From NCBI RefSeq assembly GCF_054482595.1, contig NZ_CM137008.1: DNA of 64,000 nt, one strand, 5' to 3'. Each line of letters starts with the position of its first letter. Position 1 is the stretch's first letter. Of this stretch, positions 532 through 63,426 are shown piece by piece. The position numbers and the translations under genes were made by a program. The notes beneath the pieces are model-generated. The model was not told the DNA's origin, made no database searches, and saw only the letters and a list, made by a program, of their open reading frames with translations.

Positions 532-772
532 TGTAAAGCATCCACAATAGAAGAAGGATGCCGCAGGTTTCATCAATATTACGCGATGATGAGAACCAGA
601 TGCGACGTTGGCCGGCAGGTCTTCGGGCTTGGAGGGGTATCTAAGATACTAAGAGATGATGACTTCCCACCGAATGGCAGTGTCCGCATAACGCAATCAT
701 CGCACCTTTCCTTACCGCTGCGCGTCAGCTCCAGATTCGCACTGGATTCCCTATTAACTCACAGGACCGGCA
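532..772 (-). promoter_or_regulatory. btuB 5' leader containing the cobalamin (AdoCbl) riboswitch
   Basis: Minus-strand sequence upstream of the btuB ATG reads as the btuB leader (GCCGGTCCTGTGAGTTAATAGGGAATCCAGTGCGAATCTGGAGCTGACGCGCAGCGGTAAGGAAAGGTGCGATGATTGCG...). Extent approximate. Confidence 0.8.
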
Positions 773-899
773 AGTGGATGCTACAGGTTGTAACAAGTTA
801 CTGTCCAGACGTAGCTCACAAATAGGAATTCATCAAGATCTGGACATCTGATGAGCAATCCCTACAATCGCCGCGTACTTTAATTTTTCAGGATACATC

Positions 900-3152: not shown

Positions 3153-4469
3153 TTACTGCAATTCTTTGGCCGGTTCTTTTACGTACAACAACGCCAACAT
3201 CGACAGCAACGTGCCTCCACCCAGATACCACGCCGGAGCCGTCAAACTATCCAGCAACACGATGGATTGCGTAGCGAAATATTGAGCAAAACCGCCAAAG
3301 ATTGCCACACCAATGCTATAAACCAGCGCAAAACCCAATGCCCGAATCCGTTTCGGCAACAGTTCAGAGATCAACAACATCACTGGCACACCGCCAAGCG
3401 TGGTAAAGCTGACCATCACGAAAACCACCGTCAGCAACATGCCAGGGCTTGGGTAATTCACCAACAGCCAGAATGACGGCCAGCTACAGATCAGCACCAT
3501 CACACGGGAGATTAAAATCAGCTTTTTACGCCCGACCGAATCGCACAACATCCCCACAAGCAGCGCACCCACAAACGTAATAACGCCCGCCAGTAACATC
3601 GCTGCATGAGAATAATGTTGAGGCATCGCCAGATACTTCGCCGCCCAGGTGCCGTAATAAAAGAGGGAGATATAGGTTGCGACCGTGCTACCAATAGCGA
3701 GTAAAACGCCATTAACGATAGTCGCCTTATGTTGCAGGAGCAGAGAAAACGCGCTTTCGCTGGTAGCAGCTTTTTTATTGCGCACAGGCTCAGGTACGTC
3801 ATTTTCCAGACTCAAACGCAACCAACAGCCGACAGGCGCTAATAACACGCCAATAAAAAACGGCACACGCCAGCCCCATTCAGCCATGACGGTTTCTGAA
3901 CCGGTCGCAAAGGGCAGCCATGCACTTAAACCTAAAGCGACAACACCTCCAAAAGTTGTTGCCAGGCCTTGAGTCGCCAGTGACCAACTGCTGTAAAAAC
4001 CGCGACGATTTGCCGGAGCTGACTCCACCAGTAGCGACATTGAAGCCCCAACTTCACCGCCTGCTGCAACACCCTGAATCAAACGAGCAAGTACCAGAGT
4101 TGCCGTTCCCCAATAGCCCGCCGTCGCATACGTCGGCGCAATGCCAATCATCAACGTGCCGAGGCTCATCAGGGCAATAGTGAACACCATCGCGGGTTTG
4201 CGTCCGAAACGATCGGCCCAGGCCCCGACGATAATTCCACCAAGCGGGCGCATAAAAAAACTCACGCCAAACGTTGCAAATGCCAGTAACAGCGCGACAT
4301 TGTGATCAGCGCTGGGTGGGAAGAAAAGTGTACTGATATAGACCACAAAAAAGTTGTAAACGCCAAAATCAAACAATTCGAGCGCATTGCCAAACGCCGA
4401 GGCAAAAATCACCCGCCTGCCGCTGGGCTTTTTCTTCACACTCACGGTTTCATTTACGATCGCCGTCAT
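3153..4469 (-). CDS. MFS transporter, metabolite:H+ symporter (MHS) family-like; substrate unknown
   Basis: 438 aa, many predicted TM segments, MFS signature region GxxxDRFGRK ([12 protein letters not shown]). Lies in a segment I do not recall between fabR and sthA in K-12. Confidence 0.8.
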
Positions 4470-4511
4470 TCCATGTTCCTTGCCAAAAAGTGTTGTTGTG
4501 TGTTGTTTTAT

Positions 4512-5678
4512 TTATTGCAGCCAGGCTTCTACCAGTGCGCCCCAGTAGCTGCTTGCCGGGACCAGACTTGCATCGTTGAAGTCGTAACCCGGGTTATGCA
4601 CCATGCAGGAACCTTCCCCGACATCGCCATTACCGAATAACAGGAAACCGCCTTTGGGTTGGGCTTCCAGCATGAAAGAGAAATCTTCACTGCCCATCAG
4701 AGGCTTGATGCCAAACTCGGCCAGCTCTTCACCAAACGTTTTACACGCCACCTGCCAGGCGAAGCGCGCCATCTCCTCGTCATTCACTAATACCGGTGTA
4801 CCGTTAACATGCGTAACCTCAGCCGTAGCACCAAAGCTGGCAGCCAGGGCTTGTGCCAGAGCAGGAATACGGGTCAGAAGAAGTTGTCGGGTATCGCGGC
4901 TAAGAGAGCGGACGCTGATTTTCATCTCAGCACTGTCAGGAATGACGTTAGCCGCCTCACCCGCAACAATGCTGCCGACGGTAATTACCGCCGCTTCCAG
5001 CGGATCGACATTGCGCGACACAATGCTTTGTAATGCGGTGGTGATATGTGCCGCGACCAGCACCGGATCGATGGCTTTGTGCGGGATCGCACCGTGTCCG
5101 CCACAACCACGAACTGTAATATGGAACTGATCCATTGACGCCATCAGTGCCCCTGGCTGGAAATAAAACTTACCCACCGGCAGACCGGGCATGTTATGCA
5201 TGCCGAAAATGACATCGCAGGGGAAATGATCAAAAAGCCCCTCTTTAACCATGATCTCACCGCCATTAATCATCTCTTCCGCAGGCTGGAAGATAAGACG
5301 TAACGTGCCGTTAAAACGGCGGGTTTCGGCAAAATAACGCGCGGCCCCCAGCAGTATGGTGGTATGCCCGTCATGCCCGCAGGCGTGCATTAAACCAGGA
5401 TGTTTACTGGCCCAGAGCTTGCCACTATTTTCATAAATCGGCAGCGCATCCATATCCGCCCGCAGGCCAATACTTTTCTCTCCGTCGCCCACTTTTAACG
5501 TGGCCACTATCCCCGTCGTCGCCAGTCCTTGCTCTACTTCATAGCCCCACTGACGCAGCTTTTCCGCAACCAAAGCACTGGTTTTAAATTCTTGTAATCC
5601 CAGCTCCGGGTTTTCGTGGATCTGATGGCGGATCTCACGCAGTTCTTCCTCAAACCCTCGAATATAGTGTTCGATCAT
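4512..5678 (-). CDS. M20D-family amidohydrolase (hippurate hydrolase / N-acyl-amino acid amidohydrolase-like)
   Basis: 388 aa with HACGHDGH metal-binding motif typical of peptidase M20D (AbgA/HipO/ILR1 type); co-oriented with the MFS gene, 42 bp apart. Confidence 0.8.
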   Translation of the reverse strand: MIEHYIRGFEEELREIRHQIHENPELGLQEFKTSALVAEKLRQWGYEVEQGLATTGIVATLKVGDGEKSIGLRADMDALPIYENSGKLWASKHPGLMHACGHDGHTTILLGAARYFAETRRFNGTLRLIFQPAEEMINGGEIMVKEGLFDHFPCDVIFGMHNMPGLPVGKFYFQPGALMASMDQFHITVRGCGGHGAIPHKAIDPVLVAAHITTALQSIVSRNVDPLEAAVITVGSIVAGEAANVIPDSAEMKISVRSLSRDTRQLLLTRIPALAQALAASFGATAEVTHVNGTPVLVNDEEMARFAWQVACKTFGEELAEFGIKPLMGSEDFSFMLEAQPKGGFLLFGNGDVGEGSCMVHNPGYDFNDASLVPASSYWGALVEAWLQ

Positions 5679-8403: not shown

Positions 8404-8516
8404 GAAACGGAGCGGCACCTCTTTTAACCCTTGAAGTCACTGCCCGTTTCGAGAGTTTCTCAACTCGAATAACTAAAGCCAACGTGAACTTTTGCGGATC
8501 TCCAGGATCCGCTTTT
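8404..8516 (+). ncRNA. oxyS: OxyS small regulatory RNA
   Basis: Sequence GAAACGGAGCGGCACCTCTTTTAACCCTTGAAGTCACTGCCCGTTTCGAGAGTTTCTCAACTCGAATAACTAAAGCCAACGTGAACTTTTGCGGATCTCCAGGATCCGC followed by T-run (intrinsic terminator). Confidence 0.93.
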
Positions 8517-18158: not shown

Positions 18159-18187
18159 AGGCCACACTTTTCAGGTGGCCTTTTTTA
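18159..18187 (+). terminator. Intrinsic terminator downstream of eptC
   Basis: Hairpin aggccacacttttcaggtggcc followed by tttttt. Confidence 0.6.
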
Positions 18188-18233
18188 ATAAGGCCAGTTA
18201 CTGTTTTCCCGTCTACATACCTAAGGGAATAAC

Positions 18234-19085
18234 ATGTATCACGACGTCAGCTATCTGCTCTCCCGCCTGATCAACGGCCCGCTGTCCCTGCGCCAGATTT
18301 ACTTTGCCAGCAGTAACGGCCCGGTGCCCGATCTTGCGTATCAGGTCGATTTTCCACGGCTGGAAATTGTGCTGGAAGGTGAGTTTGTTGATACCGGCGC
18401 TGGAGCAACGTTAGTTCCCGGCGATGTGCTGTACGTTGCCGCTGGTGGCTGGAATTTTCCACAATGGCAAGCCCCCGCTACTACCTTTAGCGTGCTGTTT
18501 GGCAAACAGCAACTCGGCTTCAGCGTCGTGCAATGGGATGGCAAACAATATCAAAATCTGGCGAAGCAACACGTCGCCCGACGCGGCCCACGCATAGGTT
18601 CTTTTCTGCTACAAACGCTCAATGAAATGCAAATGCAGCCGCAGGAGCAGCAAACGGCAAGGCTTATCGTCGCCAGCCTGCTTAGCCACTGCCGCGATTT
18701 GCTTGGCAGCCAAATCCAGACCGCCTCACGCAGCCAGGCACTATTCGAAGCTATTCGCGATTATATCGACGAACGCTATGCCTCCGCGCTTACCCGCGAA
18801 TCTGTCGCACAGGCATTCTATATTTCACCAAACTATCTCTCGCACCTGTTTCAAAAAACGGGGGCCATTGGTTTTAACGAATACCTGAATCACACGCGAC
18901 TGGAGCACGCTAAGACGTTATTGAAAGGCTATGACCTGAAGGTAAAAGAAGTGGCGCACGCCTGCGGCTTTGTCGACAGCAACTACTTCTGCCGTCTGTT
19001 TCGTAAAAACACCGAACGCTCGCCGTCGGAATATCGCCGGCAGTACCACAGCCAACTGACAGAAAAACCGACTACTCCAGAATAA
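18234..19085 (+). CDS. yijO: AraC-family transcriptional regulator YijO
   Basis: 283 aa MYHDVSYLLSRLINGPLSLRQIYFASSNGPV...; C-terminal AraC HTH (NYLSHLFQKTG...). Confidence 0.9.
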   Translation: MYHDVSYLLSRLINGPLSLRQIYFASSNGPVPDLAYQVDFPRLEIVLEGEFVDTGAGATLVPGDVLYVAAGGWNFPQWQAPATTFSVLFGKQQLGFSVVQWDGKQYQNLAKQHVARRGPRIGSFLLQTLNEMQMQPQEQQTARLIVASLLSHCRDLLGSQIQTASRSQALFEAIRDYIDERYASALTRESVAQAFYISPNYLSHLFQKTGAIGFNEYLNHTRLEHAKTLLKGYDLKVKEVAHACGFVDSNYFCRLFRKNTERSPSEYRRQYHSQLTEKPTTPE

Positions 19086-19413
19086 GATGGGTTTGCTGCG
19101 GCGCAGAAAGCACTTTGCGCACCGCGCTCATTACCCGCTGCGGCTCACGCAGGAATGCGTAGATGCTGCATTGCACATAGCGGCAATGTTCAAATCGCTC
19201 GGCACCGGCAAGCTCGATATCCGTAATCAACAGAGCAACATCCGCCCGACGGATATCCTCGTCCGCTAAACGATTCTCCGTTCCCAGCGCGCCCTGAGTT
19301 TCAATGCTGACTCCCCACTTCTCTAACAGGCACAACTTTTCCAGCCGTTCCGCCGCCATATATGTATGCGCCACGCCGCTTACGCAGGCGGTTACTGCCA
19401 CCAGGTATGCCAT
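19072..19413 (-). CDS. frwD: PTS fructose-like EIIB component FrwD
   Basis: 113 aa MAYLVAVTACVSGVAHTYMAAERLEKL... (PTS EIIB fold, Cys phosphorylation site). Confidence 0.9.
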   Translation of the reverse strand: MAYLVAVTACVSGVAHTYMAAERLEKLCLLEKWGVSIETQGALGTENRLADEDIRRADVALLITDIELAGAERFEHCRYVQCSIYAFLREPQRVMSAVRKVLSAPQQTHLILE

Positions 19414-19414
19414 T

Positions 19415-20293
19415 TTAACCTCCCACGGTAACCTGAAATCCGGCCCGTTCTGCCATTTCGCGCATCGTTGTCACATCGGCTGACGACGGCGCAGGCACCT
19501 CTTTCATCGACCATGTTTTCCCCAGCAGGCGGTATTTCGGTTCGCCGTACTGATGAAACGGTAACAGATGGATCTGCCTGATTTTCAGCGGGATCAGTAC
19601 ATCCAGCGCCTGCTGCATATTCTCCCGGCTGAGCGTGAAACCAGGGATCAGCGGTAAACGCGGGATCACGTTGACGCCCTCACTCACCAGCAAACGCAGA
19701 TTCTCCAGCACGCGTGGCAGGTTCATCTTCACCACATCCCGCGCCTGAGTCGCGTCCATAATTTTTAAATCGAACAACACTTCATCGCACAATTTCGCCA
19801 GCGGTAACAGCTTGCTGGCTGGCGCGTCTCCGGCAGTTTCAATGGCGCATGACACGCCCCACAACCGCAGCCGCTGTAAAAAACGGGTAGCAAACTCCGC
19901 CTGCATTAACACTTCGCCGCCAGAAAGCGTGACGCCGCCGCCGGACGTGCGAAAGAAAATGTCATCTTTCATCACTTCCCGTTCCAGCGCGTCAAGGCTG
20001 ATATCGCGACCAATCCGTTCAAACGCCCCGGAGGGGCATTCATCCGCATCACGCAAACATTTCGCACAGTGCAGACATTTCGCCTCTCTGCGTACCGTCT
20101 GGATTTTGCCGGAGATCGACTCCGGATTAGCACACCACGGGCAAAGATGCGGACAGCCTTTAAAAAAGACCACCGTACGAATGCCCTCGCCGTCATTCAG
20201 TGAATAACGCTGAATGTTGAAAATGCGCGCCACATCATTGCGGCGCGTTTCCACAACGTTACAGCTGATGCGCTGTCCGACGGATGATGTCAT
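19415..20293 (-). CDS. pflC: Glycyl-radical enzyme activating protein PflC (radical SAM)
   Basis: Conserved start MTSSVGQRISCNVVETRR...; CxxxCxxC radical-SAM motif (GCPHLCPWCANPES). Track ORF extended 23 codons. Confidence 0.9.
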   Translation of the reverse strand: MTSSVGQRISCNVVETRRNDVARIFNIQRYSLNDGEGIRTVVFFKGCPHLCPWCANPESISGKIQTVRREAKCLHCAKCLRDADECPSGAFERIGRDISLDALEREVMKDDIFFRTSGGGVTLSGGEVLMQAEFATRFLQRLRLWGVSCAIETAGDAPASKLLPLAKLCDEVLFDLKIMDATQARDVVKMNLPRVLENLRLLVSEGVNVIPRLPLIPGFTLSRENMQQALDVLIPLKIRQIHLLPFHQYGEPKYRLLGKTWSMKEVPAPSSADVTTMREMAERAGFQVTVGG

Positions 20294-22556
20294 CCTGGAT
20301 CTCCTTCGACAGTTCGACAAAGAAGGCGCTGTATCCGGCAACGCGCACCACCAGCCCGGCATAATCTTGTGGGCGCTGTTGCGCTTCCCGCAACGTGTCG
20401 GCGTTCACCACGTTAAACTGAATATGCTGCAACTTAAGCTGGGTAAACGCCCGTAAGAAGTCGGCCAGTTTGCGTAATCCCGCTTCACCTTCCAGGGTCG
20501 CCGGAGTGAATTTCACGTTCAGCAACGTACCGTTAGACAGCAGCGTATTATCGAGCTTACTGACTGACTTCAGTACCGCTGTTGGCCCTTGTGCGTCCTG
20601 GCCCAGCATGGGTGACAAGCCGCCGTCTGCCAGTTGTTCCCCGGCAAAACGACCGTCTGGCGTCGCACCAACCACCGATCCCAACGGGACGTGAGCAGAA
20701 ACGGTATACGATCCCGGCGTGAAGTAACCGCCGCGCGGGTTCTGGTATTTTTCCACTTCTTTGCAGTAGTGGCGCAACAGTTCGGCGCTAATGTTATCCA
20801 CCTCGTCGATATCGTTACCGTATTTCTCAAAGCGGTTAATTAAGCGAGCGCGGACTTTTTCGCCTTCTGGCGTTGCAAAGTTGGCTTTTAATACCGACAG
20901 CAATTCGTCAAAACTTAAACGCTGTTGATCAAAAACCATCCCTTTCAACGCATGGAGAGAATCGCTCAGGTTGGCGATACCAATTCCCTGTACGCCGGAG
21001 AAGTTATAACGCGCGCCGCCATCGGTAATATCGCGACCTTTTTCCAGACAATCGCTGATAAAAGACGAGAGCAGCGGTACAGGTGCCCAGTCGCGATGGC
21101 CGATATCACAAATATTGCTGCCCTCAACCATCAGGGTGATGTAGTGGCTGATCTTGGCGCGGATCTGCTCCAGTAAACCTTCATAAGTCAGCGCAGCATT
21201 GCCTTCATTTTCATGCAGGCAGATTTCCATCACTTTCAGCAGATTAAACATCGCGATGTCATGCAAGCCGTAGGTTCTGCCGGGAATAGATAATTCCACA
21301 CAGCCCACTACGGAATAGTCGCGCGCATCTTCCAGCGAAACGCCACGGTTGAGGAACGCTGGCACCACCACTTCATCGTTAAAGATTTGCGGAATACCGG
21401 TGCCGAGGCGAATGGTTTCTGCGGTTTTCATCAGGAACGGCGTGTCGATCAAGGCGTTAGTGCGCACCCCTAGGTTCGGTTGCGGTAATTGTACGCTTTG
21501 ATAGGCATCGAGGCAGAGGAACGAAAGCACGTTCACCGCGCTACGTCCGTTCTCGGTTAACCCGCCGAGCAGTGCGGTATAGCCAGTCGGGAAACCTGCG
21601 AAATAACGCGCGCTGCTGGTGGAGCGCAACAGCACAATGTCGTTGCATTTCACCCATAAAGATTCGAGCAGTTCTTTCAGGAACGCCGGATCTTCGCCCT
21701 GGGTTAAAGATGCCTGATAGAACGGCAACATATACTGGTCGAAGCGCCCTAAAGACAGCGAACTGGCGTTGGATTCGTATTGCAGAATGATGTTCATGTA
21801 CCAGAATAACTGGCACGCCTGCCAGAACGTCTGCGGCTTATGTTCGGCGTTATGGCGGGAGATCTCCGCAATAGTCAGCAGTTCTTCGCGACGCTGGGCA
21901 TCAGTGCAGCTTGCCGCCATCGTTTCCGCCAGTTCGGCGTAACGCAAAATGTGTTTCTGCGAGGCTTCGAGCAGTAACAGCGCTGCCTGATAAAAGTGAT
22001 TCTCCGGCTGTTGCTGACAATGTTGCTGCATTTGCGCTACCAGCTCACCCAGCCCGTGATTCAGCAGGCGCGGGTAATCAATAATAATGTGCCCCTGGCC
22101 TTTATCCGTCTGGTTGATGCTGAAAATCTGCGTGCTGGTCGCGGCTTTTACTTCATCCGTCATCTGCCCGTTGATGAAATCTTTCATCGAACGTTTTTCC
22201 CAGTACGGGAACAACTCTTCACGGTAGATACGTTTATCTTCTTCGCTGATAGCAAAGCGGTCCTGCGGACGCGTCGGGAACTGGTCCAACTCTTTCAGCA
22301 ACCAGTAAGGGTCCATTTCCGGCGACATAATCCCGGCGCGCGGTTTCACCGTGCGGTTACCGGCAATCAGTTCTTCATCACGAATCGAAATTTCAACATG
22401 TTCAAGGATATACGCTGTTGCTTTCGCCCGGCGCAATATCACCGGTTCGCCTTCGGTTTGCCGATGGCTGGCGGTATAAAGCAGCGCACGCTCCAGCGAG
22501 ATTTCACGGGTATTGGCAAACAGTGCAGTTTTGAGGCGAGAGATACGATTCGTCAT
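20259..22556 (-). CDS. pflD: Pyruvate formate-lyase-like glycyl radical enzyme PflD
   Basis: 765 aa MTNRISRLKTALFANTREISLERALLYTASHRQ...; glycyl-radical motif RVAGYSA near C-terminus. Confidence 0.93.
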   Translation of the reverse strand: MTNRISRLKTALFANTREISLERALLYTASHRQTEGEPVILRRAKATAYILEHVEISIRDEELIAGNRTVKPRAGIMSPEMDPYWLLKELDQFPTRPQDRFAISEEDKRIYREELFPYWEKRSMKDFINGQMTDEVKAATSTQIFSINQTDKGQGHIIIDYPRLLNHGLGELVAQMQQHCQQQPENHFYQAALLLLEASQKHILRYAELAETMAASCTDAQRREELLTIAEISRHNAEHKPQTFWQACQLFWYMNIILQYESNASSLSLGRFDQYMLPFYQASLTQGEDPAFLKELLESLWVKCNDIVLLRSTSSARYFAGFPTGYTALLGGLTENGRSAVNVLSFLCLDAYQSVQLPQPNLGVRTNALIDTPFLMKTAETIRLGTGIPQIFNDEVVVPAFLNRGVSLEDARDYSVVGCVELSIPGRTYGLHDIAMFNLLKVMEICLHENEGNAALTYEGLLEQIRAKISHYITLMVEGSNICDIGHRDWAPVPLLSSFISDCLEKGRDITDGGARYNFSGVQGIGIANLSDSLHALKGMVFDQQRLSFDELLSVLKANFATPEGEKVRARLINRFEKYGNDIDEVDNISAELLRHYCKEVEKYQNPRGGYFTPGSYTVSAHVPLGSVVGATPDGRFAGEQLADGGLSPMLGQDAQGPTAVLKSVSKLDNTLLSNGTLLNVKFTPATLEGEAGLRKLADFLRAFTQLKLQHIQFNVVNADTLREAQQRPQDYAGLVVRVAGYSAFFVELSKEIQDDIIRRTAHQL

Positions 22557-22606
22557 GAGGAACTCCTGTGGGAAAGCGAACCCGCCCTTGCGAGCGGGAG
22601 AAGAAC

Positions 22607-22927
22607 TTAAGCGGTTTGCGCCAGGTGAGCTTCAATTTTGCTCATAATGGCGTCAGCGCGTTTTACCGCGTCGCTGATGTTGACGCGCACAATGGTCTTG
22701 CCAGCAAAACGCTCTTCAAACTTGATGCCGATATCTTTGGTCAGAATCACCATATCGGCGCTCGCCACATCTTCCGCAGTCAGTTCGTTTTCCAGACCAA
22801 TCGAGCCCTGGGTTTCTACTTTCACTTCCCAGCCTTTCGCTTTCGCGGCACTTTCCAGCGCCTCTGCCGCCATATAGGTATGGGCAACACCTGAAGGACA
22901 TGCGGTTACTGCAATAATTTTCGTCAT
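22607..22927 (-). CDS. frwB: PTS fructose-like EIIB component FrwB
   Basis: 106 aa MTKIIAVTACPSGVAHTYMAAEALESAAKAKGWEVKVETQG... Confidence 0.9.
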   Translation of the reverse strand: MTKIIAVTACPSGVAHTYMAAEALESAAKAKGWEVKVETQGSIGLENELTAEDVASADMVILTKDIGIKFEERFAGKTIVRVNISDAVKRADAIMSKIEAHLAQTA

Positions 22928-22941
22928 GGCTCGTTCCTCAA

Positions 22942-24021
22942 TTAATTAATTTCAAAATCCAAATCCAGGTCGTCTTCTTTTTCATCAGTCGAAGCCCCAT
23001 TTTTACGCGCCAGACTTTTCAGCACGTTCACACAAACAGCCGTCACAACCGCCCCGACAGCCACTGCTGCGATATAACCCAACTTACCTTCAACCACCGG
23101 CAGCACAATCAGACCACCCCAGCCTGCATAGCACTGCGCACCGACCAGCGCCGCAGTTACTGCACCACAAACTGAACCGACCATGATGGAAGGAATAACA
23201 CGCAGCGGATCGGCAGCGGCGAAAGGAATCGCCCCTTCAGTAACCCCAACGCACCCCATCACCAGCGCCGCTTTACCGGTTTCGCGCTCTTCTGCGGAGA
23301 AATTTTTACGACCAATCAGCGTCGCCAGCCCCATCCCCAGCGGCGGGATACAAATACCCACGGCAGCAATGGCCACCACGGTATAAACACCCTGAGCAAC
23401 GCAAATCAGCATGAAGGCATAGGCCACTTTGTTAACCGGACCGCCCATATCGAACGCCAGCATCAGACCCATGATCACCGCCAGCATAACAATGCTGCCC
23501 TGCTGCATCCCCTGAAGCCACTGAGTCAGGCTGTTGGTCAACGCCCCTACAGGCTCGCCCAAGCCCCACATCATGATGCCTGCGGTAATCAGTGTGCCGA
23601 TGATAGGAATGATGAAGATAGGCATCACCGAGCGCAGAACTTTATGCACCGGAATTTTCTTCAGGTAATGCACCACTATGCCGCCGATAATCCCGGCGAT
23701 CAGCGCACCAAAGAAGCCCGCACCAAAGCTGTTACCAACCCAGGCACCGATAGCGCACGGAGCCAGCGCAGAACGCTCTGCAATGGAGTAACCAATGTAA
23801 GCGGCGAGGAAAGGCACCATCAGCGTCAAACCTGCAACGCCGATATCAAACAGTTTTTTCAGATTCGGATCGGCTACGGCATCCGGCACTGCGCCTTTGC
23901 CATACAACATGACGGAAACCGCCAGCAAAATACCGCCCGATACCACGAAGGGAATCATGTGTGAAACGCCCGTCATTAAGTGCTGACGGGCATTTTTCAG
24001 GATCTGCATCAACTCATTCAT
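22942..24021 (-). CDS. frwC: PTS fructose-like EIIC permease FrwC
   Basis: 359 aa polytopic membrane ORF MNELMQILKNARQHLMTGVSHMIPFVVSGGILLAV... Confidence 0.9.
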   Translation of the reverse strand: MNELMQILKNARQHLMTGVSHMIPFVVSGGILLAVSVMLYGKGAVPDAVADPNLKKLFDIGVAGLTLMVPFLAAYIGYSIAERSALAPCAIGAWVGNSFGAGFFGALIAGIIGGIVVHYLKKIPVHKVLRSVMPIFIIPIIGTLITAGIMMWGLGEPVGALTNSLTQWLQGMQQGSIVMLAVIMGLMLAFDMGGPVNKVAYAFMLICVAQGVYTVVAIAAVGICIPPLGMGLATLIGRKNFSAEERETGKAALVMGCVGVTEGAIPFAAADPLRVIPSIMVGSVCGAVTAALVGAQCYAGWGGLIVLPVVEGKLGYIAAVAVGAVVTAVCVNVLKSLARKNGASTDEKEDDLDLDFEIN

Positions 24022-24329
24022 AAGCTGCTCCCGGGCTTGCGAAAGCCCATGTCCATATTTTTGATGGAGGAAACAATAGGCAATCGCAGGCGGAGCAAAC
24101 AGTGGATAAAAAGGCCATTTACTGGACTTTTGTAATATCAGTACAAAAATGCGATCCGCCTCATAACTTGCGATAATCCGGAAGCATGCCGCAAAACGGC
24201 GTCTTGTGAGACGCGTCGCAAATTGACGGTTACATTACATTTGTCCAGCTTTTGGCAGATTTGTCACATGGCAGGCCGTTGCCGTGCGCTCTTATCCTGT
24301 AAACAGAAAACCGTACCGGGAGAGAGGCA

Positions 24330-26831
24330 ATGGCCCTGATTGTGGAATTTATTTGTGAGCTACCTAACGGCGTACATGCACGTCCGGCAAGCCACGTTGA
24401 AACGCTGTGTAATACTTTTTCATCACAAATTGAGTGGCATAACCTGCGCACTGACCGCAAGGGCAACGCCAAAAGCGCCCTTGCGCTGATTGGCACCGAC
24501 ACGCTGGCGGGCGATAACTGCCAGTTACTGATTTCCGGGGCCGACGAACAGGAAGCGCACCAGCGTTTAAGCCAATGGCTGCGCGATGAATTCCCCCACT
24601 GCGATGCGCCGCTGGCGGAAGTTAAATCTGACGAACTGGAACCACTGCCGGTTTCACTGACCAATCTGAATCCGCAAATTATCCGCGCCCGCACCGTGTG
24701 CAGCGGTAGCGCAGGCGGCATTCTGACGCCGATCTCTTCTTTAGATCTCAATGCGCTGGGTAATCTTCCCGCAGCCAAAGACGTTGACGCCGAGCAATCC
24801 GCACTGGAAAACGGCCTGACGCTGGTACTGAAAAACATTGAGTTTCGTCTGCTGGATAGCGACGGTGCCACCAGCGCGATTCTGGAAGCGCACCGATCCC
24901 TGGCTGGCGATACTTCCCTGCACGAACATTTACTGGCAGGCGTCAGCGCCGGATTAAGCTGCGCCGAAGCAATTGTTGCCAGCGCGAATCACTTTTGCGA
25001 AGAGTTCGCCCGTTCCAGCAGCAGCTACCTGCAAGAACGTGCCCTGGACGTACGCGACGTCTGCTTCCAGTTACTCCAGCAAATCTACGGTGAGCAACGC
25101 TTCCCGGCACCGGGCAAACTGACGCAGCCCGCCATTTGTATGGCTGATGAACTGACCCCCAGCCAGTTCCTCGAACTGGATAAAAATCACCTCAAAGGTC
25201 TGTTACTGAAAAGTGGCGGCACCACCTCACATACCGTAATTCTTGCCCGTTCGTTCAACATTCCGACACTGGTTGGTGTAGATATTGATGCCCTTACTCC
25301 GTGGCAGCATCAAACGATTTATATCGACGGCAACGCCGGGGCGATTGTGGTTGAGCCAGGGGAAGCCGTAGCTCGTTATTATCAGCAAGAAGCCCGCGTA
25401 CAGGACGCCCTTCGTGAGCAACAGCGTGTCTGGCTGACCCAACAAGCCCGTACCGCTGACGGTATCCGCATTGAAATTGCCGCTAACATCGCTCACTCCG
25501 TGGAAGCGCAGGCCGCATTCGGCAATGGTGCGGAAGGCGTCGGTTTGTTCCGCACTGAAATGCTCTATATGGATCGCACCAGCGCACCGGGCGAAAGCGA
25601 GTTGTACAACATTTTTTGTCAAGCGCTGGAGTCCGCCAACGGACGCAGCATTATTGTGCGCACTATGGATATTGGCGGTGACAAACCCGTTGATTATCTG
25701 AACATTCCGGCAGAAGCTAACCCGTTCCTCGGTTATCGCGCGGTGCGTATTTATGAAGAATACGCCTCGCTGTTCACCACACAACTACGGTCGATCCTCC
25801 GTGCCTCTGCTCACGGCAGCCTGAAAATCATGATCCCGATGATCTCCTCAATGGAAGAGATCTTATGGGTGAAAGAAAAACTGGCGGAAGCCAAACAGCA
25901 ACTGCGTAACGAACACATTCCGTTTGATGAGAAGATCCAGCTCGGCATCATGCTGGAAGTGCCGTCGGTGATGTTCATCATCGATCAATGCTGCGAAGAG
26001 ATTGATTTCTTTAGTATTGGTAGTAATGACCTGACGCAATATCTGCTGGCAGTGGATCGCGATAACGCTAAGGTTACTCGTCACTACAACAGCCTGAATC
26101 CGGCATTCTTGCGGGCGCTCGATTACGCCGTGCAAGCGGTGCATCGCCAGGGCAAATGGATTGGTCTGTGCGGTGAGCTGGGAGCGAAAGGTTCCGTGCT
26201 GCCGTTGCTGGTCGGCTTAGGGCTGGATGAACTCAGCATGAGCGCACCATCAATTCCGGCGGCGAAAGCGCGGATGGCGCAACTTGATAGCCGTGAGTGC
26301 CGCAAGTTGCTCAACCAGGCAATGGCCTGCCGTACTTCGCTGGAAGTGGAACACCTGCTGGCGCAATTCCGCATGACCCAACAAGACGCACCGCTGGTCA
26401 CCGCCGAGTGCATCACACTGGAAAGCGACTGGCGCAGCAAAGAAGAAGTACTCAAAGGCATGACCGATAACCTGCTGCTGGCGGGCCGCTGCCGCTATCC
26501 GCGTAAACTGGAAGCCGACTTGTGGGCGCGCGAGGCCGTTTTCTCTACCGGTCTGGGCTTTAGTTTTGCCATTCCCCACAGCAAATCAGAACACATTGAG
26601 CAATCCACCATCAGCGTAGCGCGTCTGCAAGCGCCGGTGCGCTGGGGCGATGATGAAGCGCAATTCATCATTATGTTAACCCTGAACAAACACGCTGCGG
26701 GCGATCAGCATATGCGCATTTTCTCGCGCCTCGCTCGCCGCATCATGCACGAAGAATTCCGTAACGCGCTGGTTAACGCCGCCTCTGCCGACGCTATCGC
26801 CAGCCTGCTGCAACATGAACTGGAACTGTAA
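24330..26831 (+). CDS. ptsA: Multiphosphoryl transfer protein PtsA (HPr-EI-EIIA fusion, fructose-like PTS)
   Basis: 833 aa [30 protein letters not shown]... (HPr-like N-terminus, EI PEP-utilising domain, EIIA C-terminus). Confidence 0.92.
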
Positions 26832-26842
26832 AAGGAAACATC

Positions 26843-27505
26843 ATGGAACTGTATCTGGACACCGCTAACGTCGCAGAAGTCGAACGTCTGGCACGCATAT
26901 TCCCGATTGCCGGGGTGACAACTAACCCGAGCATTATCGCTGCCAGCAAGGAGTCCATATGGGAAGTGCTGCCGCGTCTGCAAAAAGCGATTGGTGATGA
27001 GGGCATTCTGTTTGCTCAGACCATGAGCCGCGACGCGCAGGGGATGGTGGAAGAAGCGAAGCGTCTGCGCGACGCCATTCCGGGCATTGTGGTGAAAATC
27101 CCGGTGACTTCCGAAGGTCTGGCCGCCATTAAGATGCTGAAAAAAGAGGGTATTACTACGCTTGGCACCGCAGTGTACAGTGCTGCACAAGGGTTACTGG
27201 CCGCGCTGGCAGGGGCAAAATACGTTGCTCCGTATGTTAACCGCGTAGATGCCCAGGGGGGGGACGGCATTCGTACGGTTCAGGAGCTGCAAGCGCTGTT
27301 AGAAATGCACGCACCAGAAAGCATGGTGCTGGCGGCCAGCTTTAAAACGCCGCGTCAGGCGCTGGACTGTTTACTGGCAGGATGTGAGTCCATCACCCTG
27401 CCCTTAGATGTAGCGCAACAAATGCTCAACACCCCTGCGGTAGAGTCAGCTATAGAGAAGTTCGAACACGACTGGAATGCCGCATTTGGCACTACTCATC
27501 TCTAA
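26843..27505 (+). CDS. fsaB: Fructose-6-phosphate aldolase 2 FsaB (TalC)
   Basis: 220 aa [38 protein letters not shown]... Confidence 0.95.
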
Positions 27506-27515
27506 AGGAGCAATT

Positions 27516-28619
27516 ATGGACCGCATTATTCAATCACCGGGTAAATACATCCAGGGCGCTGATGTGATTAATCGTCTGGGCGAATACCTGAAGCCGCTGG
27601 CAGAACGCTGGTTAGTGGTGGGTGACAAATTTGTTTTAGGTTTTGCTCAATCCACTGTCGAGAAAAGCTTTAAAGATGCTGGACTGGTAGTAGAAATTGC
27701 GCCGTTTGGCGGTGAATGTTCGCAAAATGAGATCGACCGTCTGCGTGGCATCGCGGAGACTGCGCAGTGTGGCGCAATTCTCGGTATCGGTGGCGGAAAA
27801 ACTCTCGATACTGCCAAAGCACTGGCACATTTCATGGGTGTTCCGGTAGCGATCGCACCGACTATCGCCTCTACCGACGCACCGTGCAGCGCATTGTCTG
27901 TTATCTACACCGATGAGGGTGAGTTTGACCGCTATCTGCTGTTGCCAAATAACCCGAATATGGTCATTGTCGACACCAAAATCGTCGCTGGCGCACCTGC
28001 ACGTCTGTTAGCGGCGGGTATCGGCGATGCGCTGGCAACCTGGTTTGAAGCACGCGCCTGTTCCCGTAGCGGCGCTACCACTATGGCGGGCGGCAAGTGT
28101 ACCCAGGCGGCGCTGGCACTGGCAGAACTGTGCTACAACACTCTGCTGGAAGAAGGCGAAAAAGCGATGCTTGCCGCCGAACAGCATGTAGTGACTCCGG
28201 CGCTGGAGCGCGTGATTGAAGCGAACACCTATTTAAGCGGTGTTGGTTTTGAAAGTGGTGGTCTGGCTGCGGCGCACGCAGTGCATAACGGCCTGACCGC
28301 TATCCCGGACGCGCATCACTATTATCACGGTGAAAAAGTGGCATTCGGTACGCTGACGCAGCTGGTTCTGGAAAATGCGCCGGTGGAGGAAATCGAAACC
28401 GTAGCTGCCCTTAGCCATGCGGTAGGTTTGCCAATAACTCTCGCTCAACTGGATATTAAAGAAGATGTCCCGGCGAAAATGCGAATTGTGGCAGAAGCGG
28501 CATGTGCAGAAGGTGAAACCATTCACAACATGCCTGGCGGCGCGACGCCAGATCAGGTTTACGCCGCACTGCTGGTAGCTGACCAGTATGGACAACGTTT
28601 CCTGCAAGAGTGGGAATAA
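27516..28619 (+). CDS. gldA: Glycerol dehydrogenase GldA
   Basis: Conserved start [39 protein letters not shown]...; track ORF extended 13 codons. Confidence 0.93.
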
Positions 28620-51663: not shown

Positions 51664-52350
51664 ATGGACGCATTCATGCAGAATATTATTCTTTTATTTA
51701 TATATTTATTACTTATAGCCGTTAACCATTTCCGCTACAAATTTCTTTTATCTGGCAACGCGGGTGAAATGATTTTATATTTTGCTAACGTATTTTTTAA
51801 CCCACTTGCCTTATCATTTATTATCGCCACAATCATCTGTATAACGATAAAAAAAAGAAGCAGCCGCAGCTTTATTCGCGGCACTTGTTGGTTAATGGGA
51901 TTATTTCTTATCTATAGCAGCTATACGGTGTGGGAACGACACAGCATATGGGATTATACTTTCCCGGAGCCAGGTATCACCGTCACGGTTCCGAGCAAAC
52001 AGTGGGTTGCCAATATAGTAAAACAAGGACCAACCCTGGTGACCCGGGATGCCCATGCTATTTTAGCTATTGTTGCCTTCTCACAAAATGAACTCGGTGT
52101 GCATTCAATCGAGGAACTTACCGCGATTCAAAACGGAACTGCAGAAATGCATGTTTGTGATGTTCAGGGATTTGCCTGCGCTTATCAGGAAGGAGTGCAA
52201 ACAATGAGTGATGGCAAAGTAAGACATGCTATTTTCATGACTCTACTGGATAACACTAATTTGATACAACTGGTCGCAGCTATCGACCCAGATTATTTGG
52301 ACGAATATCAAGAAGAAGTAATGAAAATGATGCTTTCTGCTCGTCAATGA
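51664..52350 (+). CDS. Hypothetical membrane-anchored protein, paralog A (start may be internal Met at 51676)
   Basis: 228 aa ORF, AT-rich, 2-3 predicted N-terminal TM helices then ~150 aa domain; about 30% identical to the adjacent downstream ORF with shared motifs (SFxRGxCW, ISVTVP, HxC...F(A/T)CxYQ, MLSA). Confidence 0.6.
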   Translation: MDAFMQNIILLFIYLLLIAVNHFRYKFLLSGNAGEMILYFANVFFNPLALSFIIATIICITIKKRSSRSFIRGTCWLMGLFLIYSSYTVWERHSIWDYTFPEPGITVTVPSKQWVANIVKQGPTLVTRDAHAILAIVAFSQNELGVHSIEELTAIQNGTAEMHVCDVQGFACAYQEGVQTMSDGKVRHAIFMTLLDNTNLIQLVAAIDPDYLDEYQEEVMKMMLSARQ

Positions 52351-52382: not shown

Positions 52383-53099
52383 ATGAGATACGTTATCTTA
52401 TTAATACTATGGATAATAACTGTTTTTCTTAGTCATCTTCAGCACAGTAACTTGCTTACTGGAGATCCTGGGATGGTTGGCGAGTATATCGGTTCAGTAC
52501 TTCTTGGGCCGTTATTACTTCCCGTGCTTGTGTCAGGTATTCTGTGCACATTCACTAAAAAAACGCGTAACTTCGCCAGTTTTACTCGCGGGTGCTGTTG
52601 GGTATTGGGAGTCCTGCTTTTATCCAACGTCGGCAATACGTTTCGTCTGTTCACCCCGTGGCACTATACGTTTGAGAAGGCAGCTATTTCCGTGACTGTC
52701 CCAAACCGACACTGGAATACGGTTTCTATTAGTACTGATAAAACCATTGATATAAGAAGTGAAGATAATAGCGTCTTTATTTCTGCTTTCCGCCTGCCCG
52801 CAGGACGTAGCGCCGATGACTCGCTGGAAGAGTTAAAGAAGATGCAGCGAGACAATCTCAAGGATCAATACAATGAAGAAACCTTCCAGTTTCATGATTG
52901 TAATGCCAAACATTTCACCTGTAAGTATCAGGATGTGTTGATAAATTTTGATGGTCAGCAGAAAAGAACCATCAGTGTTTATCTTGAAGACACCCCCAGG
53001 GCTGTGGGGATCATTGCATTAATGGAGCCAGATACGGCAGATAAATATCGCCAACAGGCGATGGAGATTATGTTGTCTGCTAAAAATACAGTGAAGTAA
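52383..53099 (+). CDS. Hypothetical membrane-anchored protein, paralog B
   Basis: 238 aa ORF MRYVILLILWIITVFLSHLQ...; same architecture and conserved motifs as paralog A. Confidence 0.6.
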   Translation: MRYVILLILWIITVFLSHLQHSNLLTGDPGMVGEYIGSVLLGPLLLPVLVSGILCTFTKKTRNFASFTRGCCWVLGVLLLSNVGNTFRLFTPWHYTFEKAAISVTVPNRHWNTVSISTDKTIDIRSEDNSVFISAFRLPAGRSADDSLEELKKMQRDNLKDQYNEETFQFHDCNAKHFTCKYQDVLINFDGQQKRTISVYLEDTPRAVGIIALMEPDTADKYRQQAMEIMLSAKNTVK

Positions 53100-63325: not shown

Positions 63326-63426
63326 GCCATATGCGGCGCGAACGCCTTATCCGGCCTACAAAAGTTTGCAAATTCAATAAATTGCAGAATTCATGTAGGC
63401 CTGATAAGCGAAGCGCATCAGGCATT
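63326..63426. repeat. REP palindromic repeats
   Basis: gccatatgcggcgcgaacgccttatccggcctaca ... gtaggcctgataagcgaagcgcatcaggcatt. Confidence 0.7.

Follow-up and report, generated by a model that had tools for sequence, protein, structure and literature searches.

Described relatives of the frw-pflDC-ptsA cluster

By sequence, the glycyl-radical enzyme (GRE) PflD of Escherichia coli has its best characterised relatives among dehydratases and lyases that belong to the eliminase class. We analysed the frw-pflDC-ptsA cluster, in which PflD is encoded together with components of a phosphotransferase system (PTS), in a stretch of 64,000 nucleotides (NCBI RefSeq assembly GCF_054482595.1, contig NZ_CM137008.1) that is referred to as the window. 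According to those passages of a review that treat these sugars, 1,5-anhydroglucitol and 1,5-anhydromannitol are phosphorylated to the 6-phosphates by a PTS (PMC12441222, section 5.1), and E. coli PflD uses glycyl-radical chemistry to cleave 1,5-anhydromannitol-6-phosphate (1,5-AM6P) to 1-deoxyfructose-6-phosphate (PMC12441222, after Ma et al., J Am Chem Soc 2024;146:26187). In the same passages the paralogue YbiW is said to convert 1,5-anhydroglucitol-6-phosphate (1,5-AG6P) to 1-deoxyfructose-6-phosphate too (PMC12441222, citing Ma et al. 2024), and cleavage of 1,5-AG6P and 1,5-AM6P to support growth of E. coli (PMC12441222). Comparing the window with these systems, we hold with good confidence that the cluster is a standard E. 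coli module by which a 1,5-anhydro-hexitol is broken down anaerobically; a fructose system is improbable.

The original prediction on this DNA had described the substrate and role of the cluster as poorly defined, a statement that is outdated given the substrate report of 2024 (via PMC12441222) and the deposited structures 8yjo and 8yjn. It had also read the linkage of a GRE to a PTS as a pointer to an uncharacterised sugar-derivative pathway. A sugar derivative was the right direction; uncharacterised no longer applies. Since a published substrate for PflD is the very outcome that the prediction had named as speaking against it, its functional speculation has been overtaken. The function of the cluster is already known, and the finding of frw-pflDC-ptsA itself holds nothing new.

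YbiW, YbiY and FsaA of E. coli resemble the PflD module: the eliminase carries a GC[IV]E loop and has an activase of its own, a paralogue of fructose-6-phosphate aldolase (FSA) is encoded next to it, and the reported product is the same; in K-12 fsaA adjoins ybiY-ybiW. YbiW differs in that it is only 38% identical to PflD and, as reported, takes the C2 epimer as substrate, and K-12 ybiW has no adjacent PTS, gldA or AraC regulator. In the Protein Data Bank (PDB), the entry 8yjo (‘Probable dehydratase PflD’, E. coli) and K-12 b3951 are each identical to the PflD of the window at 758 of 765 residues, which, with the shared K-12 locus, makes it an orthologue of the characterised E. coli enzyme. 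PDB also holds E. coli YbiW (8yjn, 8id7) and a homologue, 8id0, which we traced to Streptococcus dysgalactiae. The operon encoding 8id0 has the same functional set as the E. coli cluster, and its GRE, at about 61% identity to PflD, keeps both GCVE and RVAGYSA; unlike the E. coli cluster it is co-directional, with one Enzyme IIB (EIIB), a free-standing Enzyme IIA (EIIA) and no AraC regulator.

More distant are the B12-independent glycerol dehydratase of Clostridium butyricum (1r8w), CutC, HypD and propanediol dehydratase. They share with PflD the fold, the TIGR01774 subfamily, the Cys-x-Glu loop and the radical elimination of a leaving group adjacent to a hydroxylated carbon. The match of 1r8w to PflD reaches 650 bits, against 1726 and 1059 bits for PflD-type enzymes. 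GREs of the 1r8w type use a small diol or amine, whereas the substrate reported for PflD is the phosphate of a cyclic sugar alcohol, and the reaction opens its ring ether. Pyruvate formate-lyase (PFL) PflB and its activase PflA share with PflD and PflC the glycyl-radical chemistry, the RVxGY motif, activation by a radical S-adenosylmethionine (radical-SAM) enzyme and oxygen sensitivity. PflB differs from PflD, to which it is 23% identical, in having Cys-Cys in place of Cys-x-Glu and in binding the formate channel FocA; PflB and TdcE pull down with FocA, His-tagged PflD does not (PMC5600444).

The locus, its enzymes and its gene context

The six open reading frames (ORFs) frwD, pflC, pflD, frwB, frwC and ptsA were found exactly at positions 19072–26831, where the original prediction had placed them. 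The functional unit is wider and extends over about 18234–28619, from yijO to gldA, with fsaB and then gldA directly 3’ of ptsA and yijO convergent with frwD. Its features are:

18234–19085, plus strand: yijO, AraC-family regulator of 283 amino acids (aa), Pfam HTH_18/HTH_AraC
19072–19413, minus strand: frwD, second PTS EIIB, 113 aa, Cys10; NCBIfam NF007747, 224 bits (cut-off 153)
19415–20293, minus strand: pflC, radical-SAM activase of PflD, 292 aa from the annotated ATG
20259–22556, minus strand: pflD, GRE of the eliminase class (by its sequence), 765 aa
22607–22927, minus strand: frwB, PTS EIIB, 106 aa, Cys10; NF007783, 210 bits (cut-off 135)
22942–24021, minus strand: frwC, Fru-family PTS Enzyme IIC (EIIC) membrane permease, 359 aa; NF007787
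24022–24329, no strand: divergent control region between frwC and ptsA, 308 bp
24330–26831, plus strand: ptsA (frwA), fused multiphosphoryl-transfer protein with putative HPr-like, Enzyme I (EI) and EIIA(Fru) parts, 833 aa
26843–27505, plus strand: fsaB, fructose-6-phosphate aldolase 2, 220 aa; TIGR00875, 351 bits against a cut-off of 246
27516–28619, plus strand: gldA, L-1,2-propanediol/glycerol dehydrogenase, 367 aa; NF047954, 753 bits against a cut-off of 700

Over the 64 kb the window differs from E. coli strain XH990 by 2 bases, and the RefSeq gene models agree. Each ORF contains a single stop codon and has the length of its K-12 MG1655 counterpart. FrwD, PflC, PflD, FrwB and FrwC match NCBIfam equivalogs over their full length above the curated cut-off, as do FsaB and GldA their NCBIfam models. 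The coordinates, K-12 lengths and family matches bear out the predicted gene identities and intact frames, and the predicted glycyl-radical, radical-SAM and EIIB Cys motifs are all present (RVAGYSA with Gly741; C47/C51/C54; Cys10).

In the K-12 MG1655 locus b3945–b3954 gene order, orientation and all gene lengths are identical to those of the window, and the proteins differ by 0–7 amino acids each, which is strain-level polymorphism only. FrwD is identical to the K-12 protein, and FrwB shows 9 synonymous changes and zero amino-acid differences. The 7 substitutions in PflD affect neither the Cys loop nor the Gly loop nor any of the 92 positions that separate PflD-type from YbiW-type enzymes. 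The frw-pfl stretch is present in 5425 of 5426 complete E. coli genomes, in 5393 of them in one piece with at least 80% coverage. The ratio of nonsynonymous to synonymous substitution rates (dN/dS) against K-12 lies between 0 and 0.06 in nine of ten genes and is 0.22 for pflC. Strong purifying selection acts on the cluster, which belongs to the core of E. coli. A cryptic or decaying cluster was considered as well and is ruled out because of the low dN/dS and the near-universal presence. The cluster is a standard, intact E. coli frw-pflDC-ptsA cluster; the observation does not arise by chance, and it is unremarkable.

PflD carries the glycyl-radical motif RVAGYSA at residues 738–744, with Gly741, and a Cys loop GCVE at residues 418–421 with a single Cys419 and Glu421 at position +2. 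A single Cys followed two residues on by Glu is the signature of radical eliminases. The original prediction had suggested a comparison of the active site with other GREs. In our alignment, which covered PflD, PflB, YbiW and four homologues, VGCVE of PflD stands opposite ACCVS of PflB, so that the Cys-Cys pair of PFL is absent and the eliminase loop is found. GCVE is kept in the homologues of Edwardsiella tarda, S. dysgalactiae, Bacillus and Clostridium, and the YbiW-type loop reads GC[IV]E. Against TIGR01774, the PFL2/glycerol-dehydratase subfamily, PflD scores 1347 bits over residues 1–765 (cut-off 678); against the equivalog of true PFL, TIGR01255, it reaches 121 bits and fails the cut-off of 994. 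Gly motif, GCxE loop, score and adjacent activase all agree with membership in the eliminase-type GRE subfamily TIGR01774. Judged from these sequence features PflD is an eliminase-type GRE and not a pyruvate formate-lyase. Among the retrieved sequences, a predicted protein of 908 aa from an ENA metagenome (P0001) aligns with PflD at 97% identity across just 69% of the query, and it is probably a chimera of assembly or gene calling rather than a true fusion.

PflC contains the radical-SAM motif CPHLCPWC at residues 47–54 (C47/C51/C54) and the Pfam domains Radical_SAM and Fer4_12. It matches NF007483 with 629 bits (cut-off 326) and the glycyl-radical activase model TIGR02494 with 262 bits (cut-off 174). 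The start of pflC overlaps the 3’ end of pflD by 35 nt, and a further in-frame ATG lies upstream at 20362.

FrwB and FrwD are 44% identical, and each has the phosphorylatable Cys10 within VTAC. FrwC matches NF007787 over residues 1–359 of 359 with 716 bits (cut-off 426). With full-length matches above the cut-off and the N-terminal Cys of the EIIBs, FrwC, FrwB and FrwD belong to the Fru family of the PTS. Membership of this family does not fix the substrate of Frw; the gene linkage points to a 1,5-anhydrohexitol. The phospho-accepting histidines of PtsA are His16 (HPr-like), His301 (GGTTSH, EI) and His750 (AIPH, EIIA). The EI domain at residues 180–677 matches TIGR01417 with 480 bits (cut-off 342) and is the sole part of PtsA above a curated cut-off. 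The EIIA region at 690–814 lies just under it (TIGR00848, 96.2 bits, cut-off 103.5), and the HPr-like region at 10–83 lies under it as well (TIGR01003, 35.3 bits, cut-off 47.9). The assignment of the putative HPr and EIIA domains is supported by these sub-threshold matches together with the His16 and His750 motifs. A second EIIB, FrwD, is found in E. coli, Enterobacter and E. tarda, and one EIIB in the Firmicutes loci.

The coding regions of yijO and frwD overlap tail to tail by 14 bp (19072–19085), an arrangement that K-12, Enterobacter and E. tarda share. The two genes have been listed as a convergent transcriptional overlap and candidate ‘excludon’ (PMC12288877). As yijO is retained beside frwD in Enterobacter and also in the different chromosomal neighbourhood of E. 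tarda, its product is a candidate local regulator of the module. The control region at 24022–24329 differs from K-12 at 2 of 308 bases, against about 2–3% in the flanking genes. It contains a CRP-like site, TGTGAGACGCGTCGCA at 24205–24220, with 1 mismatch from the consensus. Two CRP-like sites were found in the whole window, and 1.8 are expected by chance from shuffled sequence; we treat the candidate site as a lead only. A sigma-70 scan gave no site in the control region, and promoter-like sites in the window were fewer than in shuffled sequence. Searching the control region with the FNR consensus did not yield a good site, and its short repeats are of a size expected by chance. In the Rfam search no RNA family was found in the frw cluster and its immediate surroundings.

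We determined the gene context of PflD-type enzymes that are 61–64% identical to the PflD of the window in four loci from Firmicutes. In S. dysgalactiae one operon encodes EIIA, EIIB, EIIC, the GRE, its activase, FSA and an iron-dependent alcohol dehydrogenase (FeADH), in this order. The order in Bacillus is EIIC, EIIA, EIIB, GRE, activase, FSA, HPr and EI. On a metagenome contig of Clostridium sp. (L013, 9001–18243) a PflD-type GRE (64% identical to PflD) lies beside a YbiW-type GRE (53% identical to YbiW). Each of the two has its own activase and DeoR regulator, with a single FSA and a GFO/IDH/MocA oxidoreductase in between and a mannose-type PTS after them. In Enterococcus a Fru-type PTS is located a few genes from the GRE and activase. 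FSA thus adjoins GRE and activase in three of the four Firmicutes loci, and a Fru-type PTS is nearby in three of the four. When E. tarda is included, a TAL_FSA gene adjoins GRE and activase in four of five distant loci (E. tarda, S. dysgalactiae, Clostridium and Bacillus; not Enterococcus). In the window fsaB is one gene, ptsA, past the divergent control region. This linkage in both Firmicutes and Enterobacterales argues that the proteins act in one pathway. Full-length relatives beyond the 50%-identity cluster of PflD itself are at most 47% identical; two of their contexts, an uninformative contig of 3.8 kb and an ATP-binding cassette (ABC) transporter locus with two GREs, were dropped as not orthologous.

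In E. tarda ATCC 23685 (L006, 5033–14389) the yijO-fsaB block lies between uvrC/pgsA and the ato genes, a different neighbourhood. The block of E. tarda, a member of another family, matches that of E. coli as closely as the Enterobacter copy does, and its PflD shows 91% amino-acid identity. The nucleotide similarity spans 18164–27491 of the window, that is yijO through fsaB, at about 77–78% identity. Since the similarity is limited to yijO-fsaB within a different neighbourhood, this block is the evolutionary unit. In Escherichia and Enterobacter gldA is an addition to the block, and because it is missing from the E. tarda copy of the module it represents an accessory step. Together, the arrangement and the similarity in E. 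tarda suggest that the 9.3-kb yijO-fsaB module was transferred horizontally.

A proposed pathway and competing explanations

From the domain content, the gene linkage and the chemistry of related enzymes we propose the following route. Phosphate would pass from phosphoenolpyruvate (PEP) to His301 in the EI domain of PtsA, to the HPr-like His16, to His750 of EIIA and on to Cys10 of FrwB and/or FrwD, and FrwC would import 1,5-anhydro-D-mannitol as its 6-phosphate. Under anoxia, and in line with its enzyme class, PflC would install the glycyl radical at Gly741 of PflD. The radical would pass to Cys419, whose thiyl would take the hydrogen from C2 of the substrate while Glu421 deprotonates the C2 hydroxyl. 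The resulting ketyl radical would then expel the ring oxygen from C1 by breaking the C1-O5 bond, and return of the hydrogen would give open-chain 1-deoxy-D-fructose-6-phosphate. FsaB would split 1-deoxyfructose-6-phosphate into hydroxyacetone and glyceraldehyde-3-phosphate, the latter entering glycolysis, and GldA would reduce hydroxyacetone to 1,2-propanediol using NADH. YijO would act as the likely local regulator.

The radical details are drawn by analogy from the GRE eliminases glycerol dehydratase, choline lyase and hydroxyproline dehydratase, and may be read accordingly as a model. That Frw is the PTS involved is suggested by domain content and linkage. Gene linkage and their known activities point to FsaB as the likely aldolase for the PflD product and to GldA as the likely hydroxyacetone reductase. 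FSA accepts hydroxyacetone, and the abstract of Ma et al. 2024 reportedly describes steps of the FsaB/GldA type. Conversion of C2 to a ketone removes the difference between the gluco and manno epimers, so that both would give the same product, and two paralogous GREs could therefore feed the same kind of aldolase. fsaB shares an operon with ptsA and gldA, and both fsaB and gldA are anaerobically induced (PMC6643234).

Several points weigh against this pathway. The substrate assignment of PflD is second-hand, coming from one review and the names of PDB entries. The passages of the review on these sugars name no particular E. coli PTS for 1,5-anhydromannitol (PMC12441222), and we assign Frw via linkage only. 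PtsA has been placed in a putative PTS for anaerobic fructose catabolism (PMC6643234). The Enterococcus locus has no adjacent FSA and E. tarda has no gldA. In the control region the searches gave neither a consensus promoter nor a good FNR site, and its CRP-like site is at chance level. Finally, the need for two EIIBs, FrwB and FrwD, is unexplained by the model.

The explanation that competes best concerns the transporter. Frw could be a PTS for fructose or an ordinary ketose or hexitol that is loosely tied to PflD, with 1,5-anhydromannitol entering via another PTS such as that for mannose or mannitol. The Fru-family membership of FrwC, FrwB and FrwD and their name ‘fructose-like’ fit this, as do the literature citation of PtsA given above, the unnamed PTS in the review passages and the lack of a PTS adjacent to K-12 ybiW. 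However, a Fru-type EIIA/EIIB/EIIC set adjoins the PflD-type GRE in S. dysgalactiae and Bacillus and lies near it in Enterococcus, and in the E. tarda block the PTS travels with the GRE. We therefore regard a fructose-type role of Frw as unlikely. About equally doubtful is a proposal that starts from the parts specific to Enterobacterales: FrwD, the fused PtsA and yijO may form an uncharacterised regulatory layer, for example with FrwD phosphorylation reporting substrate flux to YijO or with the overlap making yijO and frw expression mutually exclusive; alternatively, Frw may carry a substrate other than 1,5-anhydromannitol.

It is very improbable that PflD is a glycerol or 1,2-diol dehydratase, with the cluster feeding GldA and FsaB via glycerol or dihydroxyacetone (DHA) metabolism. 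The nearest structure that has long been characterised is indeed the glycerol dehydratase 1r8w with its 650 bits, the GCVE loop is common to eliminases of this class, the name in UniProt style is ‘probable dehydratase’, and gldA and fsaB act on glycerol and DHA (PMC6643234). Against this stand the sugar-phosphate substrate that the review passages assign to PflD (PMC12441222) and the linked genes, which encode a PTS and an aldolase of the fructose-6-phosphate type, and neither a glycerol facilitator nor a 1,3-propanediol dehydrogenase nor a microcompartment. In addition, the protein clusters that come next, at most 47% identical, have other gene contexts. The weakest explanation, that PflD is a further formate-lyase acting on pyruvate or a 2-ketoacid and PflC its activase, draws on the label ‘formate C-acetyltransferase’ used by the Prokaryotic Genome Annotation Pipeline (PGAP) and NCBIfam NF007437, on the RefSeq name ‘[formate-C-acetyltransferase]-activating enzyme’ for PflC and on the PFL-like and Gly_radical Pfam domains of PflD, but it is effectively refuted by GCVE in place of the essential Cys-Cys of PflB, the low identity to PflB, the TIGR01255 score and the failure to bind FocA.

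Further features of the window and annotation names

Apart from the 1,5-anhydro-hexitol module, the window contains several accessory segments. Two tandem genes on the plus strand, at 51676–52350 and 52473–53099, encode proteins of 224 and 208 aa and form an insertion that separates rraA from zapB. The two products are each hydrophobic at the N-terminus and appear by eye to be paralogues, with a common W-x-YTF...(I/V)(T/S)VTVP and a C-terminal M-x-(M/I)MLSA(R/K); neither gave a match in Pfam, NCBIfam or PADLOC. The stretch of 1.55 kb is found in 679 of 5426 complete E. coli genomes. This pair is an accessory islet and may merit attention more than the frw cluster. Between fabR and sthA, at 3153–5678 on the minus strand, lie genes for a metabolite/H+ symporter of the major facilitator superfamily (MFS) and an M20 amidohydrolase. 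The symporter is annotated as citrate-proton symporter, and its best matches are TcuC-like. The segment is covered to at least 80% in 1505 of 5426 E. coli genomes and is therefore an accessory two-gene insert. A mobile-element scar at 39286–43076, between yiiX and rpmE, is made up of two transposase genes, one of IS1 (annotated as frameshifted) and one of ISEc1 (interrupted by an internal stop), together with an RHS C-terminal remnant, the small ORF downstream of that remnant and a DUF6531 fragment.

Rfam elements were found in the expected places:

597–786, minus strand: cobalamin riboswitch of btuB
8404–8513, plus strand: OxyS
43455–43507, minus strand: L31 leader
48119–48176, plus strand: ClpQY (hslVU) promoter element
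63361–63402, plus strand: ES036 small RNA

Annotation names in the cluster deviate from the assignments given here. PflD and all retrieved homologues (P0271–P0389, from Streptococcus, Enterococcus, Clostridium, Bacillus and lactobacilli) carry the name ‘formate C-acetyltransferase’. For ptsA, PGAP uses the symbol ptsP, a naming slip, as ptsP denotes the Enzyme I of the nitrogen PTS.

As a discovery the cluster carries little weight, being part of the E. coli core with the function of its key enzyme published in 2024. The practical value of the analysis is corrective: the public names of PflD, PflC, ptsA and their homologues in other phyla are wrong or outdated, so that readers working from sequence only will keep flagging the cluster as unexplained. 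The pathway is also of some medical interest through the degradation of 1,5-anhydroglucitol, which the review passages describe as the toxic precursor in the neutropenia of glycogen storage disease Ib (GSD Ib) and G6PC3 deficiency and as being degraded by gut bacteria by this glycyl-radical chemistry (PMC12441222).

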